Shown: in pieces, positions 5,056-52,341 of the stretch
How the letters are laid out: every line of letters begins with the position of its first letter
How positions within the stretch are numbered: the first letter of the stretch is position 1
IMG/VR virus record: IMGVR_UViG_3300042868_005520
Location: 32,001 to 96,000 of that record
DNA: 64,000 nt
Reading direction: 5' to 3' (one strand)
Source of the DNA: a virus
The notes under the pieces: model-generated
What the model was told of the DNA's origin: nothing
Database searches by the model: none
The model's input: the letters and a program-made list of their open reading frames with translations, nothing else
Program-made: the position numbers and the translations under genes

Positions 5056-5447
5056 GTAAACCATTCGGATATTCGTATTACCTTGATATGTACACCTGTC
5101 GCATTGGTGCAGCCGATGACTTGGAGTTGCACTACCGCTTTCTTGAGCGCGTTGTGGACAAGATTGGCATGACTCGTATGTCACAGCCTGTGGTAATGCA
5201 TGGTCCAACTAAAAATGGACTTGAGATTTATCCCGACAAGGCAGGGGTAAGTGGTTGGGTTCCGCTTATTGAGAGCGGCATTCAGATTCACTCAATGGAA
5301 CCCAAGCGGTTCATTACCCTTGATGTGTACTCCTGCAACAAGTTTGATCAGAACATCATTTTTGAATACGCACGAGAATGCTTTGGCTTTGAAGAGTACG
5401 AAGAGAAATTCTTTGAGCGTGGTATGGGCTACGGCGATATTGCCTGA
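5052..5447 (+). CDS. S-adenosylmethionine decarboxylase-like pyruvoyl proenzyme (SpeD-like)
   Basis: GVSGWVPLIE/SGIQIH autocleavage motif, LDVYSCNKFD, terminal ERG. Confidence 0.8.
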   Translation: MSKPFGYSYYLDMYTCRIGAADDLELHYRFLERVVDKIGMTRMSQPVVMHGPTKNGLEIYPDKAGVSGWVPLIESGIQIHSMEPKRFITLDVYSCNKFDQNIIFEYARECFGFEEYEEKFFERGMGYGDIA

Positions 5448-5448
5448 T

Positions 5449-6060
5449 GTGAGGTGTGCCTTGCCACAAGACAATGAAAAGAAAAAAGAACAGAAACGAA
5501 AATGGTGGAAGACTTTCTATCAAGAACACAAAGAACAGATACTTGCAGAAAAGCGTGAGTATCGTGAATCCAATAGACAGGTGATACGAGACACCCAAAA
5601 AGTCTACCGCGATTCTGAAAAAGGCAGATCAAAAAATGCTGAAGAGGCTAGAGAGCGCAGGGCATTAAAGAAAAACTGCACAATTCCATTGACGGAAAAT
5701 GAACGCGAACGGCTTATGCTTTTAGAAAAAACTCGCAGAGAACTATCTGTAGAAACAGGTAAAGAGTATCATATAGACCATATTCTCCCTCTTTCTCACG
5801 GTGGTATTCATCACCCCATGAATTTAAGAATACTTGATGGTGCAGAAAACCTTTTAAAAAATGCAAAACTAATTCCCGAAGCGATTGCACTTGCACCCGA
5901 ACACTTCCGCTTGTATAGTGAGCGTGTTAGTCCTGAACGCGCATGGGAGTTTGTGCGCCAACTTGCAGCAGGATTAGGATTGAGTGAAAAGGATTTGGAC
6001 GCGCTCATCACAGGCAAGCCGCTGAAGAACAAGCCCACACTAGAGGATTTCATGCTATGA
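5449..6060 (+). CDS. HNH endonuclease (homing-type)
   Basis: YHIDHILPLSHGGIHHPMNLRILDGAENLLK; K/R/E-rich N-terminal helix; start uncertain (GTG 5449 or TTG 5461); the track start at 5251 overlaps the previous gene. Confidence 0.8.
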   Translation: MRCALPQDNEKKKEQKRKWWKTFYQEHKEQILAEKREYRESNRQVIRDTQKVYRDSEKGRSKNAEEARERRALKKNCTIPLTENERERLMLLEKTRRELSVETGKEYHIDHILPLSHGGIHHPMNLRILDGAENLLKNAKLIPEAIALAPEHFRLYSERVSPERAWEFVRQLAAGLGLSEKDLDALITGKPLKNKPTLEDFML

Positions 6061-7016
6061 ACACCCACCACATTATTCTTGGCGATTGTATTGAAGGCAT
6101 GAAAACGCTATCCGACAAATGCGTTCAGACTTGCATTACATCTCCTCCGTACTTCGGCTTGCGTGATTACCAAGGAGGAGAAGCCGAGATTGGTCAAGAA
6201 GACACCGTTGAGGGCTATGTGCAGAAGATGGTCGAGGTGTTCCGCGAGGTGCGCCGTATTCTTCGTAATGACGGTACGCTGTGGCTGAACCTTGGCGACT
6301 CGTACATGAGCGCAAAGAACTGTGCCCCACCACCGCAGACGGTAGCCAACGGCAACGCTCGTAGTATGCCCACTGATTTTATTCCTGCAAACCGTAAGGA
6401 TCAGGATGGGCTGAAGACAAAGGACTTAATTGGTATTCCGTGGCGGGTCGCTCTTGCGCTACAGGCAGACGGATGGTATCTGCGGCAGGACATTATTTGG
6501 AGCAAGCCCAATCCCATGCCTGAAAGCGTGGCAGACCGCTGCACGAAGTCGCATGAGTACATTTTCCTGCTGTCCAAGAAGCCCCACTACTACTACGATC
6601 ACGAAGCGGTAAAGGAACCTGCTCGTAATTGGGGAACCCGTGACCGCACCGAAATGCGGGACGGAACCACTGATCCCAAACTAAAGCACCACGGACTACA
6701 GGGCAAAGAGTGGGAGGAGAATCCACTGAAAAACAAGCGATCCGTATGGACGGTGAATGCGAAAGGCTACAAGGGCGCACACTTTGCGGTGTATCCTGAA
6801 GAACTAGTAACGCCGTGTGTGCTTGCAGGATGCCCCGCAGGAGGCACGGTGTTTGATCCATTCACAGGCAGCGGAACAACTGCTGTGGTGGCTTTGAAGA
6901 ACGGACGGAATTATATTGGGACTGAATTGAATCCCGAATATGTTAAGATTGCAGAAGCGCGTATTAAAGAATCAGTTCCACAAACTCTAGAGGGGATTTT
7001 AAATGAGCAAGTTTAA
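6057..7016 (+). CDS. DNA methyltransferase, N4-cytosine/N6-adenine, beta class
   Basis: Catalytic TSPPY near the N-terminus, SAM-binding DPFTGSGTT near the C-terminus, IWSKPNPMPES, HFAVYP. Confidence 0.93.
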   Translation: MNTHHIILGDCIEGMKTLSDKCVQTCITSPPYFGLRDYQGGEAEIGQEDTVEGYVQKMVEVFREVRRILRNDGTLWLNLGDSYMSAKNCAPPPQTVANGNARSMPTDFIPANRKDQDGLKTKDLIGIPWRVALALQADGWYLRQDIIWSKPNPMPESVADRCTKSHEYIFLLSKKPHYYYDHEAVKEPARNWGTRDRTEMRDGTTDPKLKHHGLQGKEWEENPLKNKRSVWTVNAKGYKGAHFAVYPEELVTPCVLAGCPAGGTVFDPFTGSGTTAVVALKNGRNYIGTELNPEYVKIAEARIKESVPQTLEGILNEQV

Positions 7017-7266
7017 GCCGATTGGAAAATGGATTTGGGTGCAGTCTGAACTTGGTGGGCAAACCGAAACCGAAGCGGGAATCATTTACAATGAAGTAAT
7101 ACGATCTCGGAACATTTGGGCGCGGGTTGTCGCAATTGGTGATAAGATAACGGAAGACATTCGTGTAGGCGACCGTATTCTGTGGGACAGAACACTGAAC
7201 AAGGGTCAAGGACATGACGGCAAAGACATGGTTCATCAGGATTGGATTGCACTCGTAGAACGATAA
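7003..7266 (+). CDS. GroES/Cpn10-like co-chaperonin
   Basis: FKPIGKWIWV...TEAGII...VVAIGD...IRVGDRIL...DWIALVE. Confidence 0.8.
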   Translation: MSKFKPIGKWIWVQSELGGQTETEAGIIYNEVIRSRNIWARVVAIGDKITEDIRVGDRILWDRTLNKGQGHDGKDMVHQDWIALVER

Positions 7267-7274
7267 GGACACCA

Positions 7275-9830
7275 GTGGACTTCTATACTTCCGTTGACAT
7301 TCGTGGTAAGAACATTCTCTATCGTGGTTGGAAGAACGGACAGCGGCAACACTTGCGCGTTCCGTTTTGCCCCACGCTCTATATTCCTGGCAAGGATAAG
7401 AGTGGAGAGTCTACGCTTACTACGATTCACGGACAGCCTGTACAGCCGATGCAGTTTGAGGATATGCAGGAAGCACGGGGGTTCATTGATCAGTTCAAGG
7501 ATGTTTCTAATTACGCAATCTACGGCAACACGAACTATGTGTACCAGTATCTTTACAAGGAGTTTCCCCACGAAGTCGAATACGATTTCAAAAGCCTCCG
7601 CGTAGCAAACTTTGACATTGAGACATCTTGTGACGGCGGTTTTCCCACGCCCGATTCTCCGACTGAAAGGATTATCGCGATCACAATCTCAATGGGTGAA
7701 AAGACCTATGTGCTAGGCTTGGGAGACTTTCACATTGAGGGAGAGGGAGTTCAGATCACCCCGTATGATGACGAGCGAGAACTTCTAGAAGGCTTTATTG
7801 CCATTTGGAAATTCCTCGACCCCGATATCGTGACAGGATGGAACATTCGCTTTTTTGATATTCCGTACCTTGTGGCGCGGATGAACTATCTTGAAGACGG
7901 GTGGGCGAACTCCCTCTCTCCTTGGGGGAAGATGCGGGAAATGACTGTGAACCGCATGGGGCGGGATCAACAAGCACACATCATTAGTGGTGTGGCTACG
8001 CTTGATTACTTTGAGTTGTACCAAACCTTTACTTATGTAAAGCAGGAATCGTATTCGCTCAACCACATTTCCAAGATGGAATTGGGTGAGGAGAAACTGT
8101 CCTACGGTGAATACGAAACCATTCAGGAGTTCTACACCAAAGACTTTCAGCGATTCATGGAGTATAACCTACAGGATGTGCGACTCGTAGACAAACTAGA
8201 ATCCAAACTAAAACTCATGGAACTAGCGGTGGCGTTGGCGTATTCCGCCCGTGTAAACTTTGAGGATGTGTTTTCTCAGGTTCGCACATGGGATGCCATT
8301 ATTCACCATCACCTGATGAGCAAGGGCATGGTGATTCCACAGAGAACAAGCAACAAGAAGGACGATCAGTACGCGGGTGCGTATGTGAAGGATCCACTTG
8401 TGGGCAAGCACGATTGGGTTGTGAGTTTCGACTTGAACTCTCTGTATCCAATGTTGATTGCGGGTTACAATATTAGTCCCGAAACAATGGAGCAGAATCC
8501 TGTTTGGAAACGCGGAAGCATTAGTCCTGATTCCATTTTGAGCAGGAACCGAGCAGAGCCTGTTTCGGAGTTCCTTGACCCTGCGGAATATTTGAGCGAA
8601 GCCAAGCGGTGCAATCTTTCTATTGCTGCTAATGGAGTTGCTTTCAGAAAAGACAAGCAAGGCTTTCTTGGAGAACTCATGGAGAAGATGTATGCGGAAC
8701 GCAAACACTTCAAGGGGTTGATGATCCAAGCGCAGAAGCGGCTTGTGGAATTGGATAAGTCTGCTCCCGCCGAAGAGCGGCAGCGGATTGAATACGAGAT
8801 TTCCAAGTACCACAATTTTCAATTGGTTCGCAAGATTCAATTGAACTCCATGTACGGCAGTCTTGGCAATCAGTACTCCCGATGGTTTGATGTAGCCCTA
8901 GCAGAAGCCATTACACTATCAGGTCAGTTAAGCATTCAATGGATTGGTGACGGTATCAATCGCTTTCTCAACAAGGTGTTGAAAACCGATGGGGAAGACT
9001 ATGTGATTGCTTCCGATACTGATTCCGTATATCTGCGTCTTGGTGGCGTGGTGGGGATGAGCAAGAAGCACCAAGCCCAAGATCAGGTAGACTTCCTGAA
9101 TGATTTCTGTGAGCGAGTTCTACAGCCGTACATCAACAAGCAGTTCGCCGAACTTTCATCTGTAATGAATGCGTATGCGAACAAGATGGCAATGGGACGC
9201 GAAGTTATTGCAGAGAGTGGCGTGTGGACTGCCAAGAAGCGGTATATGCTTTCTGTTTGGGATAGTGAGGGTGTTCGGTACAAGACTCCAAAGTTCAAGA
9301 TCATGGGCATGGAGACTGCTAGATCGTCTACCCCTGCGTATGTTCGTAAGGCACTAAAGACTGCCATTGAAATGGTTCTTGTTGGTGATGAAGTAACGCT
9401 TCAAAAGTTTGTTGTAAAGACCGAGAAGGAGTTCAAGTCATTGCCTGTGGAAGAAGTGGCTTCTCCCCGTGGCGTATCTAATATAGACGAGTACTCTGAC
9501 TCCCTGACTATTTACAAGAAGTCTACACCCATTGCTGTTAAGGCTGCGCTGCTTCACAACAACATGATCAAGCAATTAAAACTTGGTCGCAAGTATCGGC
9601 TTATTGGTGAGGGCGAGAAGATGAAGTTCATCTATCTGAAAACACCTAATCCTATTCACGAAGGTGTTATTGGATTTCCTGTTACCATGCCTAAAGAGTT
9701 TGATCTTCAAAAATACATTGACTACGATACTCAATTCAAAAAGACTTTCCTTGAGCCTCTACGCACAATCACCAATGCGGTGGGGTGGAGTCCTGAAGAA
9801 AGAAATAGTCTTGAGTCTCTGTTTGCTTGA
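7275..9830 (+). CDS. gp43: Family B DNA polymerase (T4 gp43-like)
   Basis: Exo DIET, TGWNIRFFDIPY, YNLQD; pol SFDLNSLYP, KIQLNSMYG, SDTDS, KKRY; GTG start 7275 after AAGGA. Confidence 0.97.
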   Translation: MDFYTSVDIRGKNILYRGWKNGQRQHLRVPFCPTLYIPGKDKSGESTLTTIHGQPVQPMQFEDMQEARGFIDQFKDVSNYAIYGNTNYVYQYLYKEFPHEVEYDFKSLRVANFDIETSCDGGFPTPDSPTERIIAITISMGEKTYVLGLGDFHIEGEGVQITPYDDERELLEGFIAIWKFLDPDIVTGWNIRFFDIPYLVARMNYLEDGWANSLSPWGKMREMTVNRMGRDQQAHIISGVATLDYFELYQTFTYVKQESYSLNHISKMELGEEKLSYGEYETIQEFYTKDFQRFMEYNLQDVRLVDKLESKLKLMELAVALAYSARVNFEDVFSQVRTWDAIIHHHLMSKGMVIPQRTSNKKDDQYAGAYVKDPLVGKHDWVVSFDLNSLYPMLIAGYNISPETMEQNPVWKRGSISPDSILSRNRAEPVSEFLDPAEYLSEAKRCNLSIAANGVAFRKDKQGFLGELMEKMYAERKHFKGLMIQAQKRLVELDKSAPAEERQRIEYEISKYHNFQLVRKIQLNSMYGSLGNQYSRWFDVALAEAITLSGQLSIQWIGDGINRFLNKVLKTDGEDYVIASDTDSVYLRLGGVVGMSKKHQAQDQVDFLNDFCERVLQPYINKQFAELSSVMNAYANKMAMGREVIAESGVWTAKKRYMLSVWDSEGVRYKTPKFKIMGMETARSSTPAYVRKALKTAIEMVLVGDEVTLQKFVVKTEKEFKSLPVEEVASPRGVSNIDEYSDSLTIYKKSTPIAVKAALLHNNMIKQLKLGRKYRLIGEGEKMKFIYLKTPNPIHEGVIGFPVTMPKEFDLQKYIDYDTQFKKTFLEPLRTITNAVGWSPEERNSLESLFA

Positions 9831-38396: not shown

Positions 38397-39458
38397 TTAT
38401 TTAGACGATTTCAAGTGGCTAGTCATGCGGGGGGCGTTTCCTTTTCCGCTTTGTTGTGTTTCTGGTTCAACTCGTCTTTTTTGAATTACAGCGCGTTTTC
38501 TCTCTTTGGGAGTCATCTCTCCCACCGTCTCAGGAGTCTTGCTGCTTACTTTGTTTGCAGGACGGCATTTAGGGTATTTACCCTTGGAGGTGTCGGATCG
38601 ACCACATGGGGGGTATTCCCCTGTCTTGGGGTCTTTCTTGCCGCCAATGTCCACCCACTTCTCTTTGAACCACCGCGAAAGGTCTTCGTCCATTTTACAT
38701 GGAGGCGTGGGAAATATTTTATTGTGCTTGGAGAATCCCCCTGTTTGACCAGGAGTATCGGCTCTTCGCTTTTTCTTGTCGCTCTCAAGCAGTCGCTCTG
38801 CGGCGGCACGGTAAATATCTGTGTAGTTAATGCCTTCTTTAATCATCGTTTTCATACCCCGTTGTAGGTCTTGGTACAAATCCTTTACATCAGAGGAATT
38901 AGCCTGTCGGGGCATTCCGCTCTTGAAAGTCTTGAAGTCGTTTGCGGCAGCAGCAGCACGAAGTTTGGACGCGCTCATGCCCTGCACACCTGTTGCGTTC
39001 TCGTCTCGTTTTCCTGCACCAACAATCGTCAGGCTCTTTAGTTTAAGGCGGTCTTTCCTGCGAGTGGAACTCATCAGGTCTTTGAAAGCCTCGTAACTTC
39101 CTTGACGATCTTCTCCGCCCACAAGGTGTACATGATCGTATCCCTTTTCGGCAAGCCAGTACAGCATCTCCACAGGGTTCTTGATTGTATTCAAGTCCTT
39201 GAAGTTTGCGTCAGGAAAGAACCGCTTCAGGTACTTGAATTTCTGTCGGGGGGTGAGTGGGTTCTTCTTGGGGTCGTTTGTGCGACTGCTGAACATAGCG
39301 TACTCTGCGCCCAAACTCTTTGCCGTGCTAATGACCTTATCGACTAGCAGTTGGTGACCTGATGTGGGGGGTTGAAAGCGACCAAAGGCAACAACGATAG
39401 ACTTGCCTTTAGTCTTGGGTTTAACAATATCCCGAACTTTTTTTTCCACTGTGATCAC
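38397..39458 (-). CDS. Cytidyltransferase-like (HxGH) nucleotidyltransferase fused to a basic C-terminal module
   Basis: FGRFQPPTSGH, KNPL, VGGEDR, MSASKLR; C-terminal EDLSRWFKEKWVD..CGR..YPKCRP. Confidence 0.8.
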   Translation of the reverse strand: MITVEKKVRDIVKPKTKGKSIVVAFGRFQPPTSGHQLLVDKVISTAKSLGAEYAMFSSRTNDPKKNPLTPRQKFKYLKRFFPDANFKDLNTIKNPVEMLYWLAEKGYDHVHLVGGEDRQGSYEAFKDLMSSTRRKDRLKLKSLTIVGAGKRDENATGVQGMSASKLRAAAAANDFKTFKSGMPRQANSSDVKDLYQDLQRGMKTMIKEGINYTDIYRAAAERLLESDKKKRRADTPGQTGGFSKHNKIFPTPPCKMDEDLSRWFKEKWVDIGGKKDPKTGEYPPCGRSDTSKGKYPKCRPANKVSSKTPETVGEMTPKERKRAVIQKRRVEPETQQSGKGNAPRMTSHLKSSK

Positions 39459-39491: not shown

Positions 39492-40700
39492 TCAAGGTTT
39501 ATTCCAAGTCTTTTCTGTGGTCAGATTGCTGCGTGAAAAATCCAATCGGTCTACCAATTTAACTGCATTGTTGCTCAAGCGGTCGATTGCAACAAATCCT
39601 TCAGGAGTAGTAACTCGATATCCGCTCTTGTCCTTGATAAAGGTTCCTACGCCTGTTTGCATGGAAGCCATCTTCTGAACAATTGTGAGTTTCAACTGAG
39701 CCAGTGCATTATGTAGTGCAAAAACACGAGCAAGTTGGTTTCTGTTGTTGCGAACCCAATCAATAGATGGAGTAGTTTTTGTGCTTGCTACTTTGCGTTT
39801 GCCTTGTGCGCGGTCAAGCATGAATTGCAGGAGTTGATTCACATCAGCATGAGAAGTAGCAACTCCTCCACGCACCAATCCGTTGATGTAGGTCTTGATT
39901 TCTATCTTTACTCCCTCGTTCTTGCCAATGCCGTTCAAGACAACACGCAAGTCAGCAGCAGTCTTGGTAAGACTAGCAATAGAGTTTTCAATTGTGCTGC
40001 GTTCCGATGGGGAGAATAGTCCTGATCCGTTTGCAAACTTCATTGTGGCGTTATCAAACCAAACATCCTTTACTTTTTTCATGTAACTAATATCGGGATT
40101 GAATCGTGCAGTCATGGTGGCGATTGATTCGCCCTCGTATGCGGTATGGAACACAATGCCAATCTTTGCTGCTGCCATGCGTGTTCCCAAATCACTTTTT
40201 GGATCCACGGCGTATTTGATTGTGTTCGGCTGAAAGGTAAGGTAACTCTTGCCGTCAATGAGTTCCCGCTGTTTTGATTCCCCATCGAACATCATGTCGC
40301 CTTGCAGCACACCACGAATACCAAGTTTGGAAAAATGCTTTAGCGCAAGTTTAAGTTTTAAGTTCAATCCCTCTACGGGATGGTTGGCATCAATATCTGA
40401 ATTGGTAAAGTTCAATTTGGGAGTCACATTGAACACACTCTTTGTGCCAACAAAAAATCGACCGCTTTGGGGGTCGATTCCACAAATAATGGCGGGTGCG
40501 CCATCCCACTTTACCGTGATGTCGTATGCACTAGGAGCGTTCGCTGTGAGAGCCTCCACAACGCCCCGTAAAGCCTTTATGGCGCGTCCGAACCCTGCGT
40601 AGCCGCTGTTGAGGATCTCGTCCTCAAGATGCTCCAAATGGACATTCTTTCCACTTGATTTTTTAAATGCTTCGACTAGGTGTTCGGTAAATGCTCTCAT
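39492..40700 (-). CDS. Conserved T4-like protein with ATP-dependent ligase-like motifs (DUF6267-like)
   Basis: HLEHLED, TVKWDGAP (KxDG), QGDMMF, PEGFV, VKLVDR. Confidence 0.65.
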   Translation of the reverse strand: MRAFTEHLVEAFKKSSGKNVHLEHLEDEILNSGYAGFGRAIKALRGVVEALTANAPSAYDITVKWDGAPAIICGIDPQSGRFFVGTKSVFNVTPKLNFTNSDIDANHPVEGLNLKLKLALKHFSKLGIRGVLQGDMMFDGESKQRELIDGKSYLTFQPNTIKYAVDPKSDLGTRMAAAKIGIVFHTAYEGESIATMTARFNPDISYMKKVKDVWFDNATMKFANGSGLFSPSERSTIENSIASLTKTAADLRVVLNGIGKNEGVKIEIKTYINGLVRGGVATSHADVNQLLQFMLDRAQGKRKVASTKTTPSIDWVRNNRNQLARVFALHNALAQLKLTIVQKMASMQTGVGTFIKDKSGYRVTTPEGFVAIDRLSNNAVKLVDRLDFSRSNLTTEKTWNKP

Positions 40701-44198: not shown

Positions 44199-46526
44199 TC
44201 ACTTCTTTGCTTGGGCATCCGTCTTCTTGTTCATAGTTTCGCGTTGCTTTACATCAACCTTCCACAAATCCCAATCAGATAGTTTTCGATTTTGTGGCAT
44301 CTTGGATTCCGTTTCAGTAATGCAGATCATACCAACATCGGTAAAGTCCGCAGACTCCCAAATCATATCATTGCCACGATCAAGCACCATGCGGCGGGTC
44401 TTTTTATTTATGATCTGCAAGCCAGTACCTGCAACATTCAGTTCTACTTGATTAGCACCCATCATAAACACAACGGATCCCATTACGCGAGTCTTCTTGA
44501 TCTTGACAGAAGTTTCCTTGCCGTCCTTCTTGCCGTAAATTTCAAAGGTTGTTCCCTCTGGCTTCTTGTTTGCAAGTGCAACTAGATCAGCAGCAGTCTT
44601 TTCGTTCTTCGCGATTGTGTTTCCTGCAACAGCATCACGAGTTACCTGTGATGCAACGCTTGCAATCTGTTTGCCGTGTGAATCTGAGCGGTTGGTTCCT
44701 CTACCAATACGAGCACCCACACCAAATGTATCGGGAGCGTCTCCCTCGATCTTTGGCTTCTTCATCTTTGGCTTTGCCGCAGCCTCGGAAAGACTATCGT
44801 GGTACGCATTGAAACTTGTCATTACCGCACTCACGCTTTGATTCTCGCGTCCCATCAATTTGGAAACCTTGTGCTTCTTGAGGATCTGCTTGATCTTGGC
44901 TTCCTGTTGGGCAGGAGTCATACTGTTCTCTGCCTCTAGATTCATTACCTTCTTCAAGTCTTCAATCGCCCCATCAGGAAGAGCGTAGATCCAGTCTTCA
45001 AGAGCAGCCTTCATGCCACCTTCATTCAACTTTACAGAAACAGATTCGTGAAGTGATTGTGTGATACGACTGATACGACCGCTTCCGAACTTGCTCATGT
45101 GATATCCTTCTGTCTTTGCCTTGGGCTTTTCTTTGATTGCTTCACCACCACGGGTCTGACTCATCAGCCCCACACTCTTCTGAAATCCATTAGAGAACTT
45201 AATCATGTCTTCCACAGCAACAGGCTTACCACCTTTAGTAATGGTTCGCGTCTTCATCGTGGTGTTTGCACCGCTTCCGTTTGCAATATCCATTGCACAC
45301 TGTGCAGCCCAACGGTGGTGTCCGTCAATAACATAACCGTCACTCACATAAATTGGTTCAAGAAGGCGCGATGCTGCTTTGCCGTAGTTCGTGGGATCCG
45401 CTGCGGCAGCAGCAAGAGTTCCGTACATTCCTGCAACCTTCTCACCTTTCAATTGACCTTGAATTGGTTTTAGTGAAGTCACATCTACTTCTTCTTCCTT
45501 TACCTCGTATCCCGAATCTTCAAGAGCCTTACGGTACTCTTTTTCCATATTGATTTCACTCTTCAAGTCTTCGGGTGTTACTTGATCAGGAGTAGTGTAC
45601 CCCTTGCTTGCCATGAGAGCCTTGTACGCAACCGATTCGGTATTCTTCGGATCAACCTGTGAAGAAAACTGTGGCATCTCTTCGCGAGGAATACCCTTGG
45701 TGACTTTTTCCTTTGTCTTTGCGTCAAAGCAGAATCCAATATGTGAGAATACTTCCGAGCACAATTCAAAATCGTATGCAGTTTGTCCACGCATTGCCGA
45801 TAGAGCAGCGTGGTTCAGTTCATCAATAAAGTCGCGTTCTGCTTGTGCATCACCGAATACAGATTCCGAATCATCCTTTGGACCAGCAAGTTCTTTTTGG
45901 TGAATGGCTTTTGCAACCACATTGGCTTTACGAATGTCTGGCTTTGCAGCAGCCTTCTCCGTAGCCTTTGCGTCTTTTGCGAATGCGCCGTCCATTTTTG
46001 TGGTTGGATTCTTTGTGCCAACATTACTTAGTTGCGCTGTTTCGGCATCTAGTGCTTTCGGCGGTTCGTTTGTTTGGCTACTTTGCGGTTGTGCTTGATA
46101 CTTCGGATCAGCGGTTGTCGCTTTCGCTTGGGTGGCGGGAGTTCCTCGTCCATTGGGTTCGGCTGCTGCTGTGGGTTTTCCTGCATTCGACTTTGGTGCT
46201 CCTGTTGCTGAAGGCTTTTGTTCGAATCCGTCCTTGTCCAATTCTACAGACTGTGAAGTATCTCCTGGTTTGTCTACTCGTCCTGCGGGTGCAGACTTAC
46301 CTGCAATCCACGCCTTGGCTGTTTCATCTGAATCAAAGTAATCAGTAACTCCGTCTTTGTTCTTGGCTCCCCATGCTCCGCTTGCTGTTTGCCATGTTTT
46401 ACCCTTCTCGCGTCCACCTAAAACCCCGCCGAGTTTCTTCTCTGCGGATTTCACTGGCTTTACGGCTGTCTGAACTTCAAGAATAACTGAGTGCAGACTT
46501 TTATATGGTTCAATGTCCATGTTCAA
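44199..46526 (-). CDS. Modular internal protein with ParB/Srx-like domain
   Basis: LKPIQ..PIYVSDGYVIDGHHRWAA; modules separated by ILE/LHE/LNE/LSE/IWE. Confidence 0.65.
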   Translation of the reverse strand: MNMDIEPYKSLHSVILEVQTAVKPVKSAEKKLGGVLGGREKGKTWQTASGAWGAKNKDGVTDYFDSDETAKAWIAGKSAPAGRVDKPGDTSQSVELDKDGFEQKPSATGAPKSNAGKPTAAAEPNGRGTPATQAKATTADPKYQAQPQSSQTNEPPKALDAETAQLSNVGTKNPTTKMDGAFAKDAKATEKAAAKPDIRKANVVAKAIHQKELAGPKDDSESVFGDAQAERDFIDELNHAALSAMRGQTAYDFELCSEVFSHIGFCFDAKTKEKVTKGIPREEMPQFSSQVDPKNTESVAYKALMASKGYTTPDQVTPEDLKSEINMEKEYRKALEDSGYEVKEEEVDVTSLKPIQGQLKGEKVAGMYGTLAAAAADPTNYGKAASRLLEPIYVSDGYVIDGHHRWAAQCAMDIANGSGANTTMKTRTITKGGKPVAVEDMIKFSNGFQKSVGLMSQTRGGEAIKEKPKAKTEGYHMSKFGSGRISRITQSLHESVSVKLNEGGMKAALEDWIYALPDGAIEDLKKVMNLEAENSMTPAQQEAKIKQILKKHKVSKLMGRENQSVSAVMTSFNAYHDSLSEAAAKPKMKKPKIEGDAPDTFGVGARIGRGTNRSDSHGKQIASVASQVTRDAVAGNTIAKNEKTAADLVALANKKPEGTTFEIYGKKDGKETSVKIKKTRVMGSVVFMMGANQVELNVAGTGLQIINKKTRRMVLDRGNDMIWESADFTDVGMICITETESKMPQNRKLSDWDLWKVDVKQRETMNKKTDAQAKK

Positions 46527-46622: not shown

Positions 46623-47348
46623 TTAGGAAACAGTCCAAGTACCACTACCACCCGCTGGAGAGGTGTAGTAGATGGCTGCGGTGAATCCGTTATTCACCCG
46701 CGTTCCTCGTGCATATCCTTCAAAAGTACTTCCTGCAATACCCGAAGTACCGCGAGTCACACCAACGGTAGTGACATCGAATGCTGCACCTGTGGCGTAA
46801 GTACTAGCCACGGTTCCGTTCACACGGAAAGCGGCTGTTCCGCCAGCGGCAGCAGAGGTTGCTCCACCTGCGGCTACAACATAGAATGCATCCGAGAACA
46901 CGATTCGATCATTAGGCTGTACGCTGATTGGTCCACGCGCAGTGAAAGTGTTTCCTGTGGTGTACGAAAGAGCAAGAGTAACACCTGATGCCATTGTTGC
47001 TCGATAGTCTGCACCGTTACGAACAAACTTCTTCAGATAGATACCAACCGTTTGTCCTTCAAGCGCACCAAGAACAATGCCGTTTGCCATTGTTTCGCCA
47101 CGAGGATTCTGAAGTGCAGCACGCATTCCTGTTGCGTAGGACGGCAGAACCGTTCCAAACGGAGGAAATCCTGCGCCTGTGGTCAGACCCGTGATGCCGA
47201 AACCCAGTTTTCTGGCGTAGTTCTCAAGCATCTTCGCGCCTGTGGTTCCTGCGGCACCAGTTAAACCATGCGATGTGAATAGATGTGCTAATTGGTTGCC
47301 GAGTTTATTCGCCTTGGCGAGTTCGACTGAATCTGCTGTGAATGCCAT
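46623..47348 (-). CDS. G/A/T-rich virion structural protein (monocistronic late gene)
   Basis: TAAATA box 47387-47392, AAGGAG SD, ATG 47348, own terminator. Confidence 0.6.
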   Translation of the reverse strand: MAFTADSVELAKANKLGNQLAHLFTSHGLTGAAGTTGAKMLENYARKLGFGITGLTTGAGFPPFGTVLPSYATGMRAALQNPRGETMANGIVLGALEGQTVGIYLKKFVRNGADYRATMASGVTLALSYTTGNTFTARGPISVQPNDRIVFSDAFYVVAAGGATSAAAGGTAAFRVNGTVASTYATGAAFDVTTVGVTRGTSGIAGSTFEGYARGTRVNNGFTAAIYYTSPAGGSGTWTVS

Positions 47349-47432
47349 AAGAGGTTCTCCTTTGAGTGATTTTGGCTTGTCGCTATTATTTAGCATACGC
47401 GAAGCCTCGCCTCGCGCTAATAGGGTGAATAC

Positions 47433-48281
47433 CTATAGTGTTTTCGTGAACGCCTGTGCTGCTGAACGAGAATCAAAATATTGAACGGAGCCGCTCTCGT
47501 TCTTTGCTCCCCATTTTTTGTTTTCGGTACGCCATACGGTGCCCACAGGGAACTGCTGTCCTGCTGTTGCGGTTCGTCTTACTTCGGGTGGATCAATCTT
47601 GCCCTGTTTGCCACGGAGTGAAACGGTGGTGCGTACAATCTTTTGCAGTTGGCGGACACGCTTCTCCTGCTCAGGAGTTCGTTTTACCCCTTGCAGTGCT
47701 TCTAGTTCCGCTTCTCCTGAGTCTCCAAGCCACACGCCGCTTTCCATGCCTGACTTGAACCGCTGCATTCTAGTGGGAGTCATGACCTGTATATTCTTCA
47801 TTGCTTCTGCGTCTTGCATGAGTCCACGCCAAATACTTTCTCCGCCAGCAGACTGTACGCCACCCGTAACAATGGTGTACCCCTTCCCATTCAGGAACTT
47901 GTACAGGCTTTGGGCAAGAGAAAATCCAATTGCACTGCTGCGGTACTCTTTTCCTGCCGTAATCATTGTGACTCGCCATCCACTGCTTCCCGTCTTGCTG
48001 CTACGCTTCATTGTGAGTTCCACAGCCACCGTGTTCGTGGGGCGATGCACAACCAATACAACTAGTTGAGGAGCCGCCGTAGTCTTGGACAAGAACACAC
48101 TAAAATCGTTTCCGATTTGTCCAATGCGGCGAACAGCCTTCTTTGTAGACTTGCCTTCATCCTTTGCGTCATCAGCAATATTCTTTAAGTGTTTACTTGC
48201 ACGCAAGCCCACACTACCACCAGCCACTCGTGACACGAGTACTGATTCAATCTCATTTAATATTTGAGAGAATGATTTCAT
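47433..48281 (-). CDS. CTS-bearing protein with GNAT-like domain
   Basis: MKSFSQILNE; YR..IG..LY..L...GYTIVTGGVQSAGGESIWRGL; C-terminal VWRTENKKWGAKN..YF module shared with the 775-aa protein. Confidence 0.55.
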   Translation of the reverse strand: MKSFSQILNEIESVLVSRVAGGSVGLRASKHLKNIADDAKDEGKSTKKAVRRIGQIGNDFSVFLSKTTAAPQLVVLVVHRPTNTVAVELTMKRSSKTGSSGWRVTMITAGKEYRSSAIGFSLAQSLYKFLNGKGYTIVTGGVQSAGGESIWRGLMQDAEAMKNIQVMTPTRMQRFKSGMESGVWLGDSGEAELEALQGVKRTPEQEKRVRQLQKIVRTTVSLRGKQGKIDPPEVRRTATAGQQFPVGTVWRTENKKWGAKNESGSVQYFDSRSAAQAFTKTL

Positions 48282-48787
48282 TTCTTTACCAGTGCGTACA
48301 TCTGCACAAACTGATCGCTTGACTGATCCTTTAATCTATATCCGTGCTGTCCTGCAAATCGCTTTATCATGGAATCGTACAGGCGAACGCGAGAATCATT
48401 TTTCTTTTTCTCTTTTGCTGCCGTAAAACGAATTACCTCTGGATCGTATTCTTCGATGAGTTGTTTCATAGCCGCAAGGGCTGTTGCGAATATTCGTCCT
48501 GTTTCGGATTTCATCTCCGCTTCCTGATCTGGTGGTGGCGAAGCCTCATCATCCACAGTGAATCCAAACACCCAACCCGCAATGGTGCCCTCGTCTCTTC
48601 GACGATCAGATTCACCGTATCGGATGGGGCGACCATACGCTTCAAACAAATGCGGCTTTCCGTCCACCAACCAGTTTCCGTACCACACCACACCACCATG
48701 ATTCAGGTACAGCGGTGTCTTCACCATTGTTAATGGGATAGGAGTTGAGTTGAAGATTTCTTGAAGATGCTGTCGAAATGCTTTCAT
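48278..48787 (-). CDS. CTS-bearing internal protein, paralogue family member A
   Basis: MKAFRQHLQE; RIFAT..FTAAKE..SRVRLY.SMIKRFA..GY. Confidence 0.65.
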   Translation of the reverse strand: MKAFRQHLQEIFNSTPIPLTMVKTPLYLNHGGVVWYGNWLVDGKPHLFEAYGRPIRYGESDRRRDEGTIAGWVFGFTVDDEASPPPDQEAEMKSETGRIFATALAAMKQLIEEYDPEVIRFTAAKEKKKNDSRVRLYDSMIKRFAGQHGYRLKDQSSDQFVQMYALVKK

Positions 48788-50010
48788 AGTGACTGCCTCT
48801 TGACTTTACCGTGAAGTTGACGATCATATCTATTGGCGCGGTAGTCCATTGGAACATCAACTTCTTTGTTTGCGTTACGGTCGTACTGTGTACGCACTCC
48901 TCCAACCACAACGGAAAGAATAAGATTTTCTATGAATGCGGTATCACCCAATATAATCTTGGGTAGTTCTTCTTTTGCCTTTACCGATCCAATGTAGCCC
49001 ATGAGCATCCAACCTTCAGTTGTTTGAATGCGAACACGCCAACGCCAAACCTTTGCACTGTCTTTCCAATACGGAGAGTCTTTGGACGAACTAGGTGTGT
49101 AGTTTTTACCGTCTATGCGAACTGTTTTGGGAGCATTGAAATTCTTCATGGACTTTACAGGCACACCGTACACAGGATACAACTCTACAATCTTTCCACT
49201 AATATTAAATGGACGAGCGTAGTACTCCTTCTTTGGACGCGGAATGTCGCCGTGCTCCACTCCTTCGCTCATGCCCCGCCTCCACTTGTTGTTGTCTTTG
49301 GAGCGATTGGTTGCGCGAGTCACGAGTCGAATGTTCTTCTTGCCGTTGTTCAGCGCGTTGCCGTCCTTGTGGTCAATCTCGCGTCCATCGGTGCTTTTTC
49401 CTTCGCGTCCCATCTTGCGAAGAATACGCTTGCGCGATGTTTTCTTTTTCATTGCAATGCGCTGCTTGGGCGTGGGGTTTGCACCACCGTACATCTTGGC
49501 GTACTCTGCTTTGTAGTCGCGGTCTTCTGCAAGTTTAGCCGTGGTCACGGTTCGCTGTTCAGCACGGCGGCGACCGTAAACTTCGGTGTTTGCAATCTTG
49601 TACCCGTACTGCTTGCCGAAACGGCGCATCAGTGCACTGTACACCGCATCGCGCTTGCCTTCGGAGGTCTTGGATATCATGTCTAACTGTTTGGGTAATT
49701 GATTAAATGTTTCCATGTGCCACTTCAAGAACATCTGCACCGCTTCCACAACTGTAGCCAGTATGCGATACGGCTTTCCTGCGTGTGTGAGTTCGTGTGA
49801 GCCATCCAAGGTGAAATTGATTTCCCACCCTTGGTTAATCTTTGTGATATCAATGTTCAAATACTGTGGTATTCCCAAATACGGGTCAGCATCGGTTTGT
49901 GCTTGGTATGTGATTTCAATTACACTGCTCTGCCATCCAATACGCTTTAGTTCACGCACAGAGAAAGGCTTATCGAATAGTTCGGTAAGGTAGGAGCGGA
50001 AGTCAATCAC
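48784..50010 (-). CDS. CTS-bearing polyprotein: paralogue B + HNH module + unknown module
   Basis: MIDFRSYLTELFD; RILATV..KRDAVYSALMRRFGKQYGY; LAE; EIDHKDGNALNNGKKNIRLV...NR; MSE. Confidence 0.7.
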   Translation of the reverse strand: MIDFRSYLTELFDKPFSVRELKRIGWQSSVIEITYQAQTDADPYLGIPQYLNIDITKINQGWEINFTLDGSHELTHAGKPYRILATVVEAVQMFLKWHMETFNQLPKQLDMISKTSEGKRDAVYSALMRRFGKQYGYKIANTEVYGRRRAEQRTVTTAKLAEDRDYKAEYAKMYGGANPTPKQRIAMKKKTSRKRILRKMGREGKSTDGREIDHKDGNALNNGKKNIRLVTRATNRSKDNNKWRRGMSEGVEHGDIPRPKKEYYARPFNISGKIVELYPVYGVPVKSMKNFNAPKTVRIDGKNYTPSSSKDSPYWKDSAKVWRWRVRIQTTEGWMLMGYIGSVKAKEELPKIILGDTAFIENLILSVVVGGVRTQYDRNANKEVDVPMDYRANRYDRQLHGKVKRQSL

Positions 50011-50486
50011 GCTGCACCTCGCTTTGGCTTTATGCGTTCAAGCACAAACATATTTTCGAAATAGTCTTCTTCGTTCTTAATCAACTTGTATCCGTACTGT
50101 GGAGCAAACCGCTTGATCATTGCCGTGTACACACGGGATCTTGATGTGGGTCTGTCCTGCTGAAGAGTTCGGTCAAAGTCTTGTTTGCTTGCAGTAAATT
50201 TAAAGTACTTTGGGCGATCACTTTTTTTCTCCATGAACCGCTTGAACGCATCCATTACTGATGCAAATACTCTTGCGCCATCGCCTTCGGCACGAATGCC
50301 TGTGTCTCCGTCCACATCAAAGGAAACTATTATAGTTTCTTCGGTGGGATACCTGTTAAAGAGTACTTCAAGTATTCCACCCTTTGCACCCGTATAGGAG
50401 TACCTCTTGCTTGATACGCCAGCCTCTTTCACAAAGGTGAACGGCTCATCAAAGAGTTCGGTGATGTAGGAGCGAAATGCTTTCAT
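50007..50486 (-). CDS. CTS-bearing internal protein, paralogue C
   Basis: MKAFRSYITELFD; RVFASVMDAF..RPTSRSRVYTAMIKRFAPQYGY. Confidence 0.7.
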   Translation of the reverse strand: MKAFRSYITELFDEPFTFVKEAGVSSKRYSYTGAKGGILEVLFNRYPTEETIIVSFDVDGDTGIRAEGDGARVFASVMDAFKRFMEKKSDRPKYFKFTASKQDFDRTLQQDRPTSRSRVYTAMIKRFAPQYGYKLIKNEEDYFENMFVLERIKPKRGAA

Positions 50487-50488
50487 GG

Positions 50489-50989
50489 TTACTCAGAGAA
50501 TGCAGGAGAATACTGGTCGCCCAAACCTTTTTTACGAACAATAAAAATCATTACCTTTTTTCTTTCGTTTGACGAACTCAACTCGTATCCGTATTTAGGG
50601 GCAAACCGTTTAATCATTGCGGAGTACACACGCGCTCTTGATGTGGGACGGGTTTCCATGCTAACACTATCCCAGTCTTCTTTGTTTGCACTAAACTCAA
50701 AGTAGTCAGGCTGATTCTTTTTCAAGAACCGCCCAAACGCGTCCATTACTGATGCAAATATTCTTGGGGCATCGCCTTCACCACGAACAGCAATAGATCC
50801 ACCCACATCAAAGTCCACATACACAGAGTCGCCTTGATTGCTGAAGTTTACTTCAAGAGGTCCACCCTCTGCGCCTTTGTACTCGTAGGTCATTGTTCCT
50901 GGCTTTTGCCAGTTTTTATCTGCTGTGGTTTTGACTAGCCTGAACGGCTTGTCAAACATTTCGCGGAGGTGCTGGCGGAATGAATTCAT
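50489..50989 (-). CDS. CTS-bearing internal protein, paralogue D
   Basis: MNSFRQHLREMFD; RIFASVMDAF..RPTSRARVYSAMIKRFAPKYGY. Confidence 0.7.
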   Translation of the reverse strand: MNSFRQHLREMFDKPFRLVKTTADKNWQKPGTMTYEYKGAEGGPLEVNFSNQGDSVYVDFDVGGSIAVRGEGDAPRIFASVMDAFGRFLKKNQPDYFEFSANKEDWDSVSMETRPTSRARVYSAMIKRFAPKYGYELSSSNERKKVMIFIVRKKGLGDQYSPAFSE

Positions 50990-51558
50990 ATCACGCCTTC
51001 CACATCATTGTCAACCACGGTGTAGCCTGGGAACATACGCGCAAGGTTGTTCATCACGCGGTTCTTGCCCCGTTGAAGCGCACGATCACGCAGCAGATTC
51101 TCGCCTGTTGCGGCAGAGATAATGGAAACAGTTTTACGAAAGCGATCCACGCGTCCTTGGTAGTCTGTCATGCCGCTGTAGTTGGGTGCCTTCTTCGCAG
51201 CAGCAAGGTATTCAGGAATGTCACCGTGAATCACATCCTGCGCGGTTTCGCTTGGCGGAATTTCGTACACCACAATCTTGCCACCGTCCCACCACCACAG
51301 CAGCGGCAAGTACGAGCGCAGAGTCTTTACATCACTTGTGGGTGGAAGCCCCCACTTCTCAAGCCAACGCGCATTGGGGTTGTCGTGCCCTGTATCCGTG
51401 TACGATGCGTACTGTTTGCCGTCATAGGTGGTTTCGCCACGCAACCGCTGGAGCGTCTTGGCAGCAATAGTCTTGTAGCCCTTGGGCTTGCGGACACCCT
51501 TCACGGCTTTGGTGGCAGAGATCACGGCTTCGCGAAGATGTTGACGGAATGTATGCAT
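50986..51558 (-). CDS. CTS-bearing hypothetical protein
   Basis: MHTFRQHLRE from ATG 51558, 5 nt after the TAAATA box. Confidence 0.65.
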   Translation of the reverse strand: MHTFRQHLREAVISATKAVKGVRKPKGYKTIAAKTLQRLRGETTYDGKQYASYTDTGHDNPNARWLEKWGLPPTSDVKTLRSYLPLLWWWDGGKIVVYEIPPSETAQDVIHGDIPEYLAAAKKAPNYSGMTDYQGRVDRFRKTVSIISAATGENLLRDRALQRGKNRVMNNLARMFPGYTVVDNDVEGVI

Positions 51559-51571
51559 CTCCATATTTAGC

Positions 51572-51597
51572 AAAAGAAAAACCCCCTTGCGGGGGCT
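51572..51597 (-). terminator. Rho-independent terminator
   Basis: On the - strand GCCCCC-GCAA-GGGGGT then TTTTCTTTT. Confidence 0.85.
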
Positions 51598-51603
51598 AAT
51601 CGT

Positions 51604-52341
51604 TTACGAGTTCAGGTACTGAGAGTACCCGTTCTCTAGGAAGATGTTCTTCTCTGTGCGGGGCACCAAACCTATTTCAATAATTGCTGCTTCGGGTTCG
51701 GATCCCACCACATCCCGCACCTCTCGGAGTGCGCTCTTGATGGAGTCACGGGATATGCCTTCAATGATTGGGGAGGGTGAGTTCGCAGAGAACTTTCGTG
51801 CGTACACTTTCAGCCACCCCTTCATGTACGCAAGCCGCTGCACATGGTAGGCAAGATCAATGTACAGTTCCTTGATACGCTGCCCAACGAGTTCGGGAGT
51901 CCAGTCTATTACGATTCCGTCCCGTGAGAACGCTAGTACCCTTCGGGAAGTTAGCCACTCCCCTTCTGCTGCCAGTGCCTTTTTCAATTCTGCTGGCGAG
52001 ATGCCGAACCGCTCTGGATGGTTTACTATTTGGGTAACATGGAACTCCCCCTCACCCCCAAAGGTGAACCACGGTTTCGTGGGATGCCACCACCCTGCAT
52101 TGGTGCTTGTAGCCCACTGGTAGGGAGCGCGTGAAGGCTTTCGTGCGCCCCGTTCACGCTGATGCCTGGCAAGATCTCGTGCTGCCATCCTTGCCATGAC
52201 TCCACCGTACAGGCGGGTTTGGCGGCGGGAGTACAGCAAGTCCTTACGAGACTGCGGAGCAGTATCACGGGGAGGCGTGTACGCGTTGGGATTGTCCTGA
52301 ATCTCTAGCCGCTCGGAGATGTACTGCCTGAACGGAATCAC
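51604..52341 (-). CDS. CTS-bearing hypothetical protein
   Basis: GTG start after GAGGG; MIPFRQYISE. Confidence 0.65.
   Translation of the reverse strand: MIPFRQYISERLEIQDNPNAYTPPRDTAPQSRKDLLYSRRQTRLYGGVMARMAARDLARHQRERGARKPSRAPYQWATSTNAGWWHPTKPWFTFGGEGEFHVTQIVNHPERFGISPAELKKALAAEGEWLTSRRVLAFSRDGIVIDWTPELVGQRIKELYIDLAYHVQRLAYMKGWLKVYARKFSANSPSPIIEGISRDSIKSALREVRDVVGSEPEAAIIEIGLVPRTEKNIFLENGYSQYLNS

Follow-up and report, generated by a model that had tools for sequence, protein, structure and literature searches.

Tandem paralogues with a common ten-residue leader in a T4-type phage: probable packaged internal proteins on a GNAT-like domain

The stretch of DNA analysed here, which we call the window, is 64,000 nucleotides long and corresponds to bases 32001-96000 of a 113,197-bp IMG/VR record (IMGVR_UViG_3300042868_005520), estimated to be 62% complete. 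Four open reading frames (ORFs) between positions 48278 and 50989 code for related proteins. An earlier note, made from the letters of the sequence, had described them as divergent paralogues similar to the N-terminal domain of T4 Alt, with a fold like that of GNAT acetyltransferases, and had suggested an accordion-like family of injected modifiers or binders. This locus raises a simple question: what are these proteins, and do they enter the host together with the phage DNA? We think it likely that the array codes for internal proteins which are packaged, processed and probably injected, built on an Alt-N-like domain with a GNAT fold, and that their genes form a recombining tandem array.

The tandem array and its leader

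The four ORFs are found head to tail on the minus strand, with stops and starts which overlap or abut. All of them begin with a ten amino acid leader followed by a domain of the same kind. Paralogue 1 (50489-50989) has 166 amino acids and paralogue 2 (50007-50486) has 159. Paralogue 3 corresponds to amino acids 1-145 (49576-50010) of a 408 amino acid ORF (48784-50010), while paralogue 4 (48278-48787, 169 amino acids) is the most divergent copy. When the protein coded at 50007 is compared with the whole 113-kb record, exactly three other places are matched: the copy at 50489 (E 9.4e-41, 49% identity), that at 48278 (E 2.1e-10) and the N-terminal third of the 48784 ORF (E 3.7e-10). The four copies still match each other when their first 14 residues are removed (blastp E 4e-40 to 7e-5). 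They are true paralogues, as had been claimed, and the proposed serial duplication, with 50007 and 50489 as the closest pair, agrees with these values. The DNA identity reported for this pair is also found: the 19-bp string TCCATTACTGATGCAAATA, which encodes the I-F-A-S-V-M-D core, occurs exactly twice (50251-50269 and 50742-50760), with zero occurrences expected by chance. The earlier note was also right that no ADP-ribosyltransferase (ART) domain is attached. None appears in the Pfam or PHROG matches of the four proteins; the 408 amino acid ORF has an HNH_3 endonuclease motif downstream of the paralogue domain (amino acids 205-235, positions 49306-49398, minus strand; E 9.2e-6, 25.6 bits for a cut-off of 24.8).

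The number of copies is not constant. IMG/VR contains one close relative of this locus (L014), with the same gene order. A single gene is found there in the place of 50489 and 50007, with a leader of the 50489 type and a body of the 50007 type, and the relative carries three paralogue copies, one of them chimeric. A metagenomic protein (P0009) has a similar structure: it is 50489-like as far as G-E-G-D-A-P and 50007-like from F-A-S-V-M-D-A-F onwards, and the crossover point coincides with the 19-bp identity. These two chimeric copies indicate that copy number changes by recombination between copies. The accordion-like behaviour which had been postulated is thus supported, by one chimeric copy in L014 against two copies in the window. 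The ratio of nonsynonymous to synonymous substitutions (dN/dS) between the window and L014 is 0.02-0.15 for the genes of the cluster and 0.34 for the chimeric copy. Both values correspond to purifying selection, so the ORFs of the array are real genes. Chance or non-coding ORFs are ruled out by the E-values, the dN/dS values and the more than 1,800 homologous clusters described below.

The leader is not limited to the paralogues. Among all ORF starts in the 113-kb record, the pattern M-x-x-F-[RS]-x-[HYI]-[LI]-x-E is found in seven consecutive genes (47433-52341) and in one short ORF, and this regular-expression search gives no further ORF start in the record. Besides the paralogues, the seven genes include those coding for proteins of 282 (47433-48281), 190 (50986-51558, starting with M-H-T-F) and 245 amino acids (51604-52341), all on the minus strand. 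No similarity is detected between the bodies of these three proteins, or between any of them and the four paralogues, and a profile comparison between the 47433 family and the paralogue family gives an alignment confined to 13 leader columns. An eighth full-length gene, outlying, has the same type of ten-residue leader (39492-40700, minus strand; 402 amino acids, start M-R-A-F-T-E-H-L-V-E, phrog_455). In the seven cluster genes and 39492, position 4 is always F, position 7 is H, Y or I, position 8 is L or I, and position 10 is E. The leader codons vary synonymously, which points to selection on the peptide rather than on the RNA.

These are the features of a T4 capsid-targeting sequence (CTS). 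In T4, the first ten residues of the internal protein IPIII are enough to have it packaged; targeting depends on positions 4 and 7, processing on positions 8 and 10, and the gp21 protease cuts after L/I-X-E (PMC9026906). Both ipII and ipIII of T4 start with MKTYQEFIAE. The leader of the array has the same length, about ten residues, and candidate residues for both functions at the same places: positions 4 and 7 for targeting, 8 and 10 for cleavage. The internal proteins of T-even phages are a diverse set with only the CTS in common (PMC3012670), and the array, judging from its sequence, appears to follow this pattern: diverse bodies behind a common CTS-type leader. The similarity between YITELFDE in the array and the MELITELFDE start of Alt, to which the earlier note had called attention, would therefore reflect mainly a capsid-targeting and processing site, common to three neighbours with unrelated bodies.

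The leader is also recognizable in the family as a whole, where its consensus is M-K-[STA]-F-R-[SQ]-Y-[IL]-T-E. Of the 87 N-terminal domain copies, 43 have the conserved Glu at residue 10. L, I, V or M is found two residues before the conserved Glu in 81 of these 87 copies; for the internal repeat copies the count is 138 of 158, and the background is 0.205. A protease-type motif is therefore present at almost every junction of the repeat proteins.

Head genes of the phage and virion proteins of its relatives

The source phage is an uncultured member of the T4 superfamily. Its DNA polymerase is of the gp43 type, with 47% identity to a cyanomyophage gp43, and no phage record matches this polymerase at 60% identity or more. 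Genes for UvsX and a gp41-like helicase adjoin the polymerase gene. Genes for tail sheath, tail tube, portal, a Peptidase_S77 prohead protease, a gp22-like scaffold and a gp23-like capsid protein are found on the 5' side of the window. PHROG matches agree: phrog_207 for the protease, phrog_237 for the scaffold, phrog_138 for the capsid protein and phrog_213 for the portal. The protease, of the gp21 type, is at positions 5388-6029 of the record (E 1.7e-40). The same phage thus encodes both a gp21-type protease and a gp22-type scaffold core, as expected for capsid-targeted proteins of the T4 type, and its own protease, capsid protein and scaffold have [LI]-x-E sites at the expected places.

Further evidence comes from cultured relatives. 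Each of the phages ValKK3, D486 and Atu_ph07 codes for a Peptidase_S77 protease and is matched 4-6 times by the family profile. In Atu_ph07, gp482 and gp483 belong to the family (region 5788-7510 of the Atu_ph07 locus): gp482 has one copy of the domain and gp483 has two, joined at L-T-E (residues 145-147). Both proteins are part of the virion proteome, with 16 unique peptides for gp483 and 9 for gp482, and both (33.7 kDa for gp483, 31.7 kDa for gp482) peak in gel band 12, where proteins of 13-16 kDa run (PMC6102473 Table S5). They run at about half their size, as expected from cleavage into single domains. The earlier note had called the proteins of the array injected; the leader, the gp21-type protease and the virion proteome of a relative point to this indirectly.

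The whole process might be as follows. Each paralogue would be made as a precursor with a ten-residue N-terminal capsid-targeting propeptide, and this propeptide would direct it to the prohead, into the scaffold core. The gp21-type protease would then cut after Glu10, at [LI]-x-E followed by LFD, and the mature domain, of about 150 residues, would remain with the packaged DNA and be ejected into the host at infection. In repeat polypeptides, a cleavage-type motif is present at almost every domain junction. The number of copies in the array would shift by homologous recombination between them.

The domain, its relation to Alt and alternative explanations

Pfam gives nothing above threshold for the domain of any of the four copies (the HNH_3 motif lies outside it). 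All four match phrog_16075, and all except the 408 amino acid ORF match phrog_6387. The closest Pfam family is DUF6934 (PF22028), with a gathering cut-off of 27 bits which the window copies do not reach: the best of them, 48278, scores 12.9 bits (E 0.11). With relatives that contain repeats, DUF6934 gives 32-163 bits; among 43 solo relatives, 20 match it at E<=0.01. The window copies are therefore related to DUF6934 by transitivity, and the domain belongs to a large uncharacterised phage family related to it. DUF6934, phrog_16075 and phrog_6387 have no assigned function in Pfam or PHROGs, and our literature search on DUF6934 found a single mention, in a Flavobacterium genome report.

An exhaustive profile search of 1.84 billion cluster representatives detects 1,868 proteins at E<=1e-3, 711 of them at E<=1e-10; each represents a cluster at 50% identity. 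Among the best 150 and close relatives, 71 proteins have one copy of the domain and 88 have two to five, with lengths up to about 1,500 residues. When the locus and the 50007 protein were compared with 50,697 phage records by megablast and tblastn, nothing was found; the relatives in cultured phages surfaced only with a consensus-like relative with three repeats as query. A profile search of PDB sequences gives nothing meaningful. The domain can stand alone, form tandem genes, be repeated 2-5 times within a polypeptide, or be fused to effectors: HNH in the window, and ART, Zeta toxin, ParB or deaminase in other members of the family.

An AlphaFold2 model of the 50007 protein, obtained from 43 sequences, has a pLDDT of 85 and a pTM of 0.77. 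Foldseek matches in the PDB are GNAT acetyltransferases only, with a probability of about 1 and TM values of 0.3-0.42, so the predicted fold is GNAT-like yet divergent. The GNAT-like fold suggested in the earlier note agrees with the model. Predicted viral structures (BFVD) give much better matches, with TM 0.6-0.71, to uncharacterised proteins of Atu_ph07, Vibrio phages and several enterobacterial phages, which are T4-type and related phages; some of these proteins are fusions with Zeta-toxin, deaminase or ParB domains.

The relation to Alt is suggested by several observations. The Alt protein of Aeromonas phage phiAS5 is among the BFVD matches (TMq 0.67, E 4.4e-4), so the model agrees with the predicted fold of a domain in an Alt protein; an ART protein of phage HY03 has a lower value (TMq 0.49). 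T4 Alt does start with MELITELFDE, as the earlier note had said. According to its GenBank annotation (X15811), Alt loses six residues after translation, which corresponds to a cut after I-T-E and before LFDE. Nine Alt N-termini, taken from Straboviridae and other T4-like relatives, keep L-[NT]-E-[VL]-F-[DE]. An hhalign comparison of 273 family domains with these nine N-termini gives 60 collinear columns, at Alt residues 73-137 (Prob 46%, E 2e-4). We should also note that the T4 annotation describes alt.-1 and alt.-2 (positions 5066-5451 of the T4 locus used for comparison) as an old tandem duplication, now decayed, of the beginning of alt: duplication of the N-terminal module has also taken place in T4.

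Some results weigh against our interpretation. Profile searches of the T4 genome with hidden Markov models (HMMs) from two alignments find nothing, an HMM of 273 domain instances gives only about 0-2 bits with T4 Alt, alt.-1 and alt.-2, and an hhalign comparison of one of these alignments with T4 Alt alone has a Prob of 0.2%. The search method works, since the same profile finds its 4-6 matches in each of ValKK3, D486 and Atu_ph07. The Alt-N resemblance proposed beforehand is thus supported by structure and weak by sequence; we consider homology between the two domains probable, not proven. The conserved [LIV]-x-E-x-F-D may be a structural part of the domain instead of a cleavage site. The Atu_ph07 stock was purified only with polyethylene glycol, so contamination is possible. 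The T4 late-promoter sequence TATAAATA has zero matches within the window, and the regions upstream of the array genes contain only loose TAAATA-like strings. Finally, packaging, cleavage and ejection are what we infer for a phage known here from its genes alone. We regard as established the paralogy, the fold, the leader, the protease gene, the presence of two relatives in virions and the change in copy number.

The last two of these objections, the missing promoter and a phage known from genes, also speak for the proteins not being packaged at all. The common N-terminus would then be some other signal, such as a membrane or degradation tag or a translation-initiation context, or just a relic of duplication. 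We find this very improbable: the leader is common to proteins with unrelated bodies, its codons vary synonymously, it agrees with the T4 CTS at each functionally mapped position and co-occurs with a gp21-type protease, and relatives are found in Atu_ph07 virions. If the proteins are packaged, as we think, it may still be asked whether the domain is an enzyme. It might be a non-catalytic module for binding or carrying (an inhibitor, a decoy, a scaffold-core or DNA-associated internal protein), which also serves as an N-terminal handle for fused effectors. We give this almost an even chance. The domain is N-terminal to, or repeated beside, many unrelated effectors (ART, HNH, ParB, Zeta toxin), and all proteins of the cluster are basic (isoelectric points 8.7-10.3), as expected for DNA-associated internal proteins. 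T4 IPI* works purely by binding (PMC3012670). However, a carrier of 140 residues seems needless when a ten-residue tag is enough for packaging in T4 (PMC9026906), solo copies have nothing to carry, and G68, R116 and Y120 are strongly conserved in the whole family, which suggests a ligand site.

The same three residues, which are presumably placed near the cofactor site of GNAT enzymes, favour a different possibility: the mature domains would be active acyl-CoA-dependent acetyltransferases which enter the host by injection and modify its proteins or defence factors. This would be a particular case of packaging, and it seems to us possible but doubtful. The modelled GNAT-like fold extends over the whole domain, and some relatives with many repeats match Pfam GNAT models in the slots between repeats. 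A possible cofactor loop, R-x-x-G-x-[GA], is found at the place of GNAT motif A in 50007 (R-A-E-G-D-G) and 50489 (R-G-E-G-D-A), right before the helix equivalent to GNAT alpha-3, in a register taken from secondary structure; by sequence, these two copies would be the best candidates for acyl transfer. The motif is absent from 48278 and 48784, that is from two of the four copies, which fits better with a non-catalytic module, and no Pfam GNAT family matches the four copies or the 43 solo relatives at E<=1. A wider proposal is still less likely in our opinion: that the domain defines an active family of capsid-delivered acyltransferases in T4-type and related phages, either as single tagged proteins or as polyproteins cut by the prohead protease at [LIV]-x-E junctions, and that its paralogues act on different targets in the host. 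The comparison with the anti-CRISPR acetyltransferase AcrVA5, suggested in the earlier note, is an analogy only.

Neighbouring genes and comparison with known systems

The protein coded at 47433 had also been described as GNAT-like. Its Foldseek matches are all acetyltransferases, at E values of 6.5e-3 or more (none at E<=1e-3), and its ESM Atlas neighbours have PF00583 in 13% and 47% of their members, but its AlphaFold2 model is poor (pLDDT 55), so the description is weakly supported. A module of about 30 residues, W-[RK]-T-x3-K-W-G-A-K ... Y-F-D ... A-A-x-A-[WF], is common to this protein and the product of 44199-46526 (blastp E 7e-6), two neighbours which are otherwise unrelated. It is C-terminal in the first (amino acids 247-278, positions 47433-47540) and corresponds to amino acids 42-73 in the second (about 46308-46403), and it is kept in all homologues of the 47433 family. 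The 44199-46526 ORF (minus strand, 775 amino acids) matches phrog_2859 and contains a ParB-like Y-V-I-D-G-H-H-R-W motif. It may be further packaged cargo, since structural relatives of the paralogue domain include ParB/Sulfiredoxin fusions.

Between these two genes there is a Gly/Thr/Ala-rich protein with a variable C-terminal part, which has 257 amino acids in the window (46623-47396) and 178 in L014 (4190-4726). G+C-rich hairpins followed by T-runs are found at 51565-51603, between ORFs 51604 and 50986, and at 47397-47432, between 47433 and 46623; this arrangement suggests that the array is transcribed as at least two or three separate units. The C-terminal 170 amino acids of the 408 amino acid ORF, after the HNH motif (48784-49305), give a weak US22-like Pfam match (E 0.012). 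Outside the main cluster, the 39492-40700 gene adjoins a cytidyltransferase-like gene at 38397-39458.

The internal proteins of T4 are the textbook case of anti-defence cargo that enters the host with the DNA, and functions are known for few of them. Our results suggest that one may read from the sequence of an uncultured T4-type phage which proteins it packages, by means of a ten-residue tag and a gp21-type protease gene. They also suggest a recurrent role, as cargo or as a handle for it, for a widespread unnamed GNAT-fold domain which is present in at least 1,868 clusters at 50% identity. The locus offers candidates for early factors of host takeover or counter-defence, and candidate protein-delivery tags which would work outside T4. 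To our knowledge, the N-terminal part of T4 Alt has no known function. If the acyltransferase reading were true, it would provide one, together with a new class of injected host-modifying enzymes.

How does this array compare with known systems? Its closest counterparts are the T4 internal proteins IPI, IPII and IPIII, which have a ten-residue propeptide with the same layout, M-K-x-aromatic-x-x-aromatic-[IL]-x-E (PMC9026906, PMC3012670). They are also coded by several adjacent genes with unrelated bodies behind a common tag, they are basic, and a gp21-type protease and a gp22-type scaffold are encoded in the same genome. On the other hand, the bodies in the window are unrelated to those of T4, where the family profile finds nothing. 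Of the seven consecutive leader genes in the window, four code for paralogous copies of a single GNAT-fold domain, one copy being fused to HNH, and they are known here as genes. T4 Alt has the same N-terminal processing motif, [LI]-[TN]-E followed by [LV]-F-[DE], but its leader has six residues, while that of the window has ten, as in the internal proteins. Alt has a C-terminal ART domain, which is not found in any of the four window copies.

GNAT acetyltransferases such as EctA, SpeG, Naa50 and RimI have only 4-15% identity to the window domain, which lacks the helices usually found after the first strand and has an extra hairpin before alpha-4. Another related case is that of the polyvalent proteins of Iyer et al. 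2017 (PMC5512222): multi-domain effectors, sometimes in several copies, which are delivered with the DNA. Alt is cited there as a prototype of packaged host modifiers, MuF and similar domains are considered packaging handles, and Alt-type ARTs are said not to occur in genuine polyvalent proteins. GNAT, ART, HNH, ParB and Zeta-type domains recur both in these proteins and in the window family. The difference is that delivery in the window family would rest on a T4-type CTS and on protease sites between modules. In summary, the array is a variant of the T4 internal proteins and Alt.

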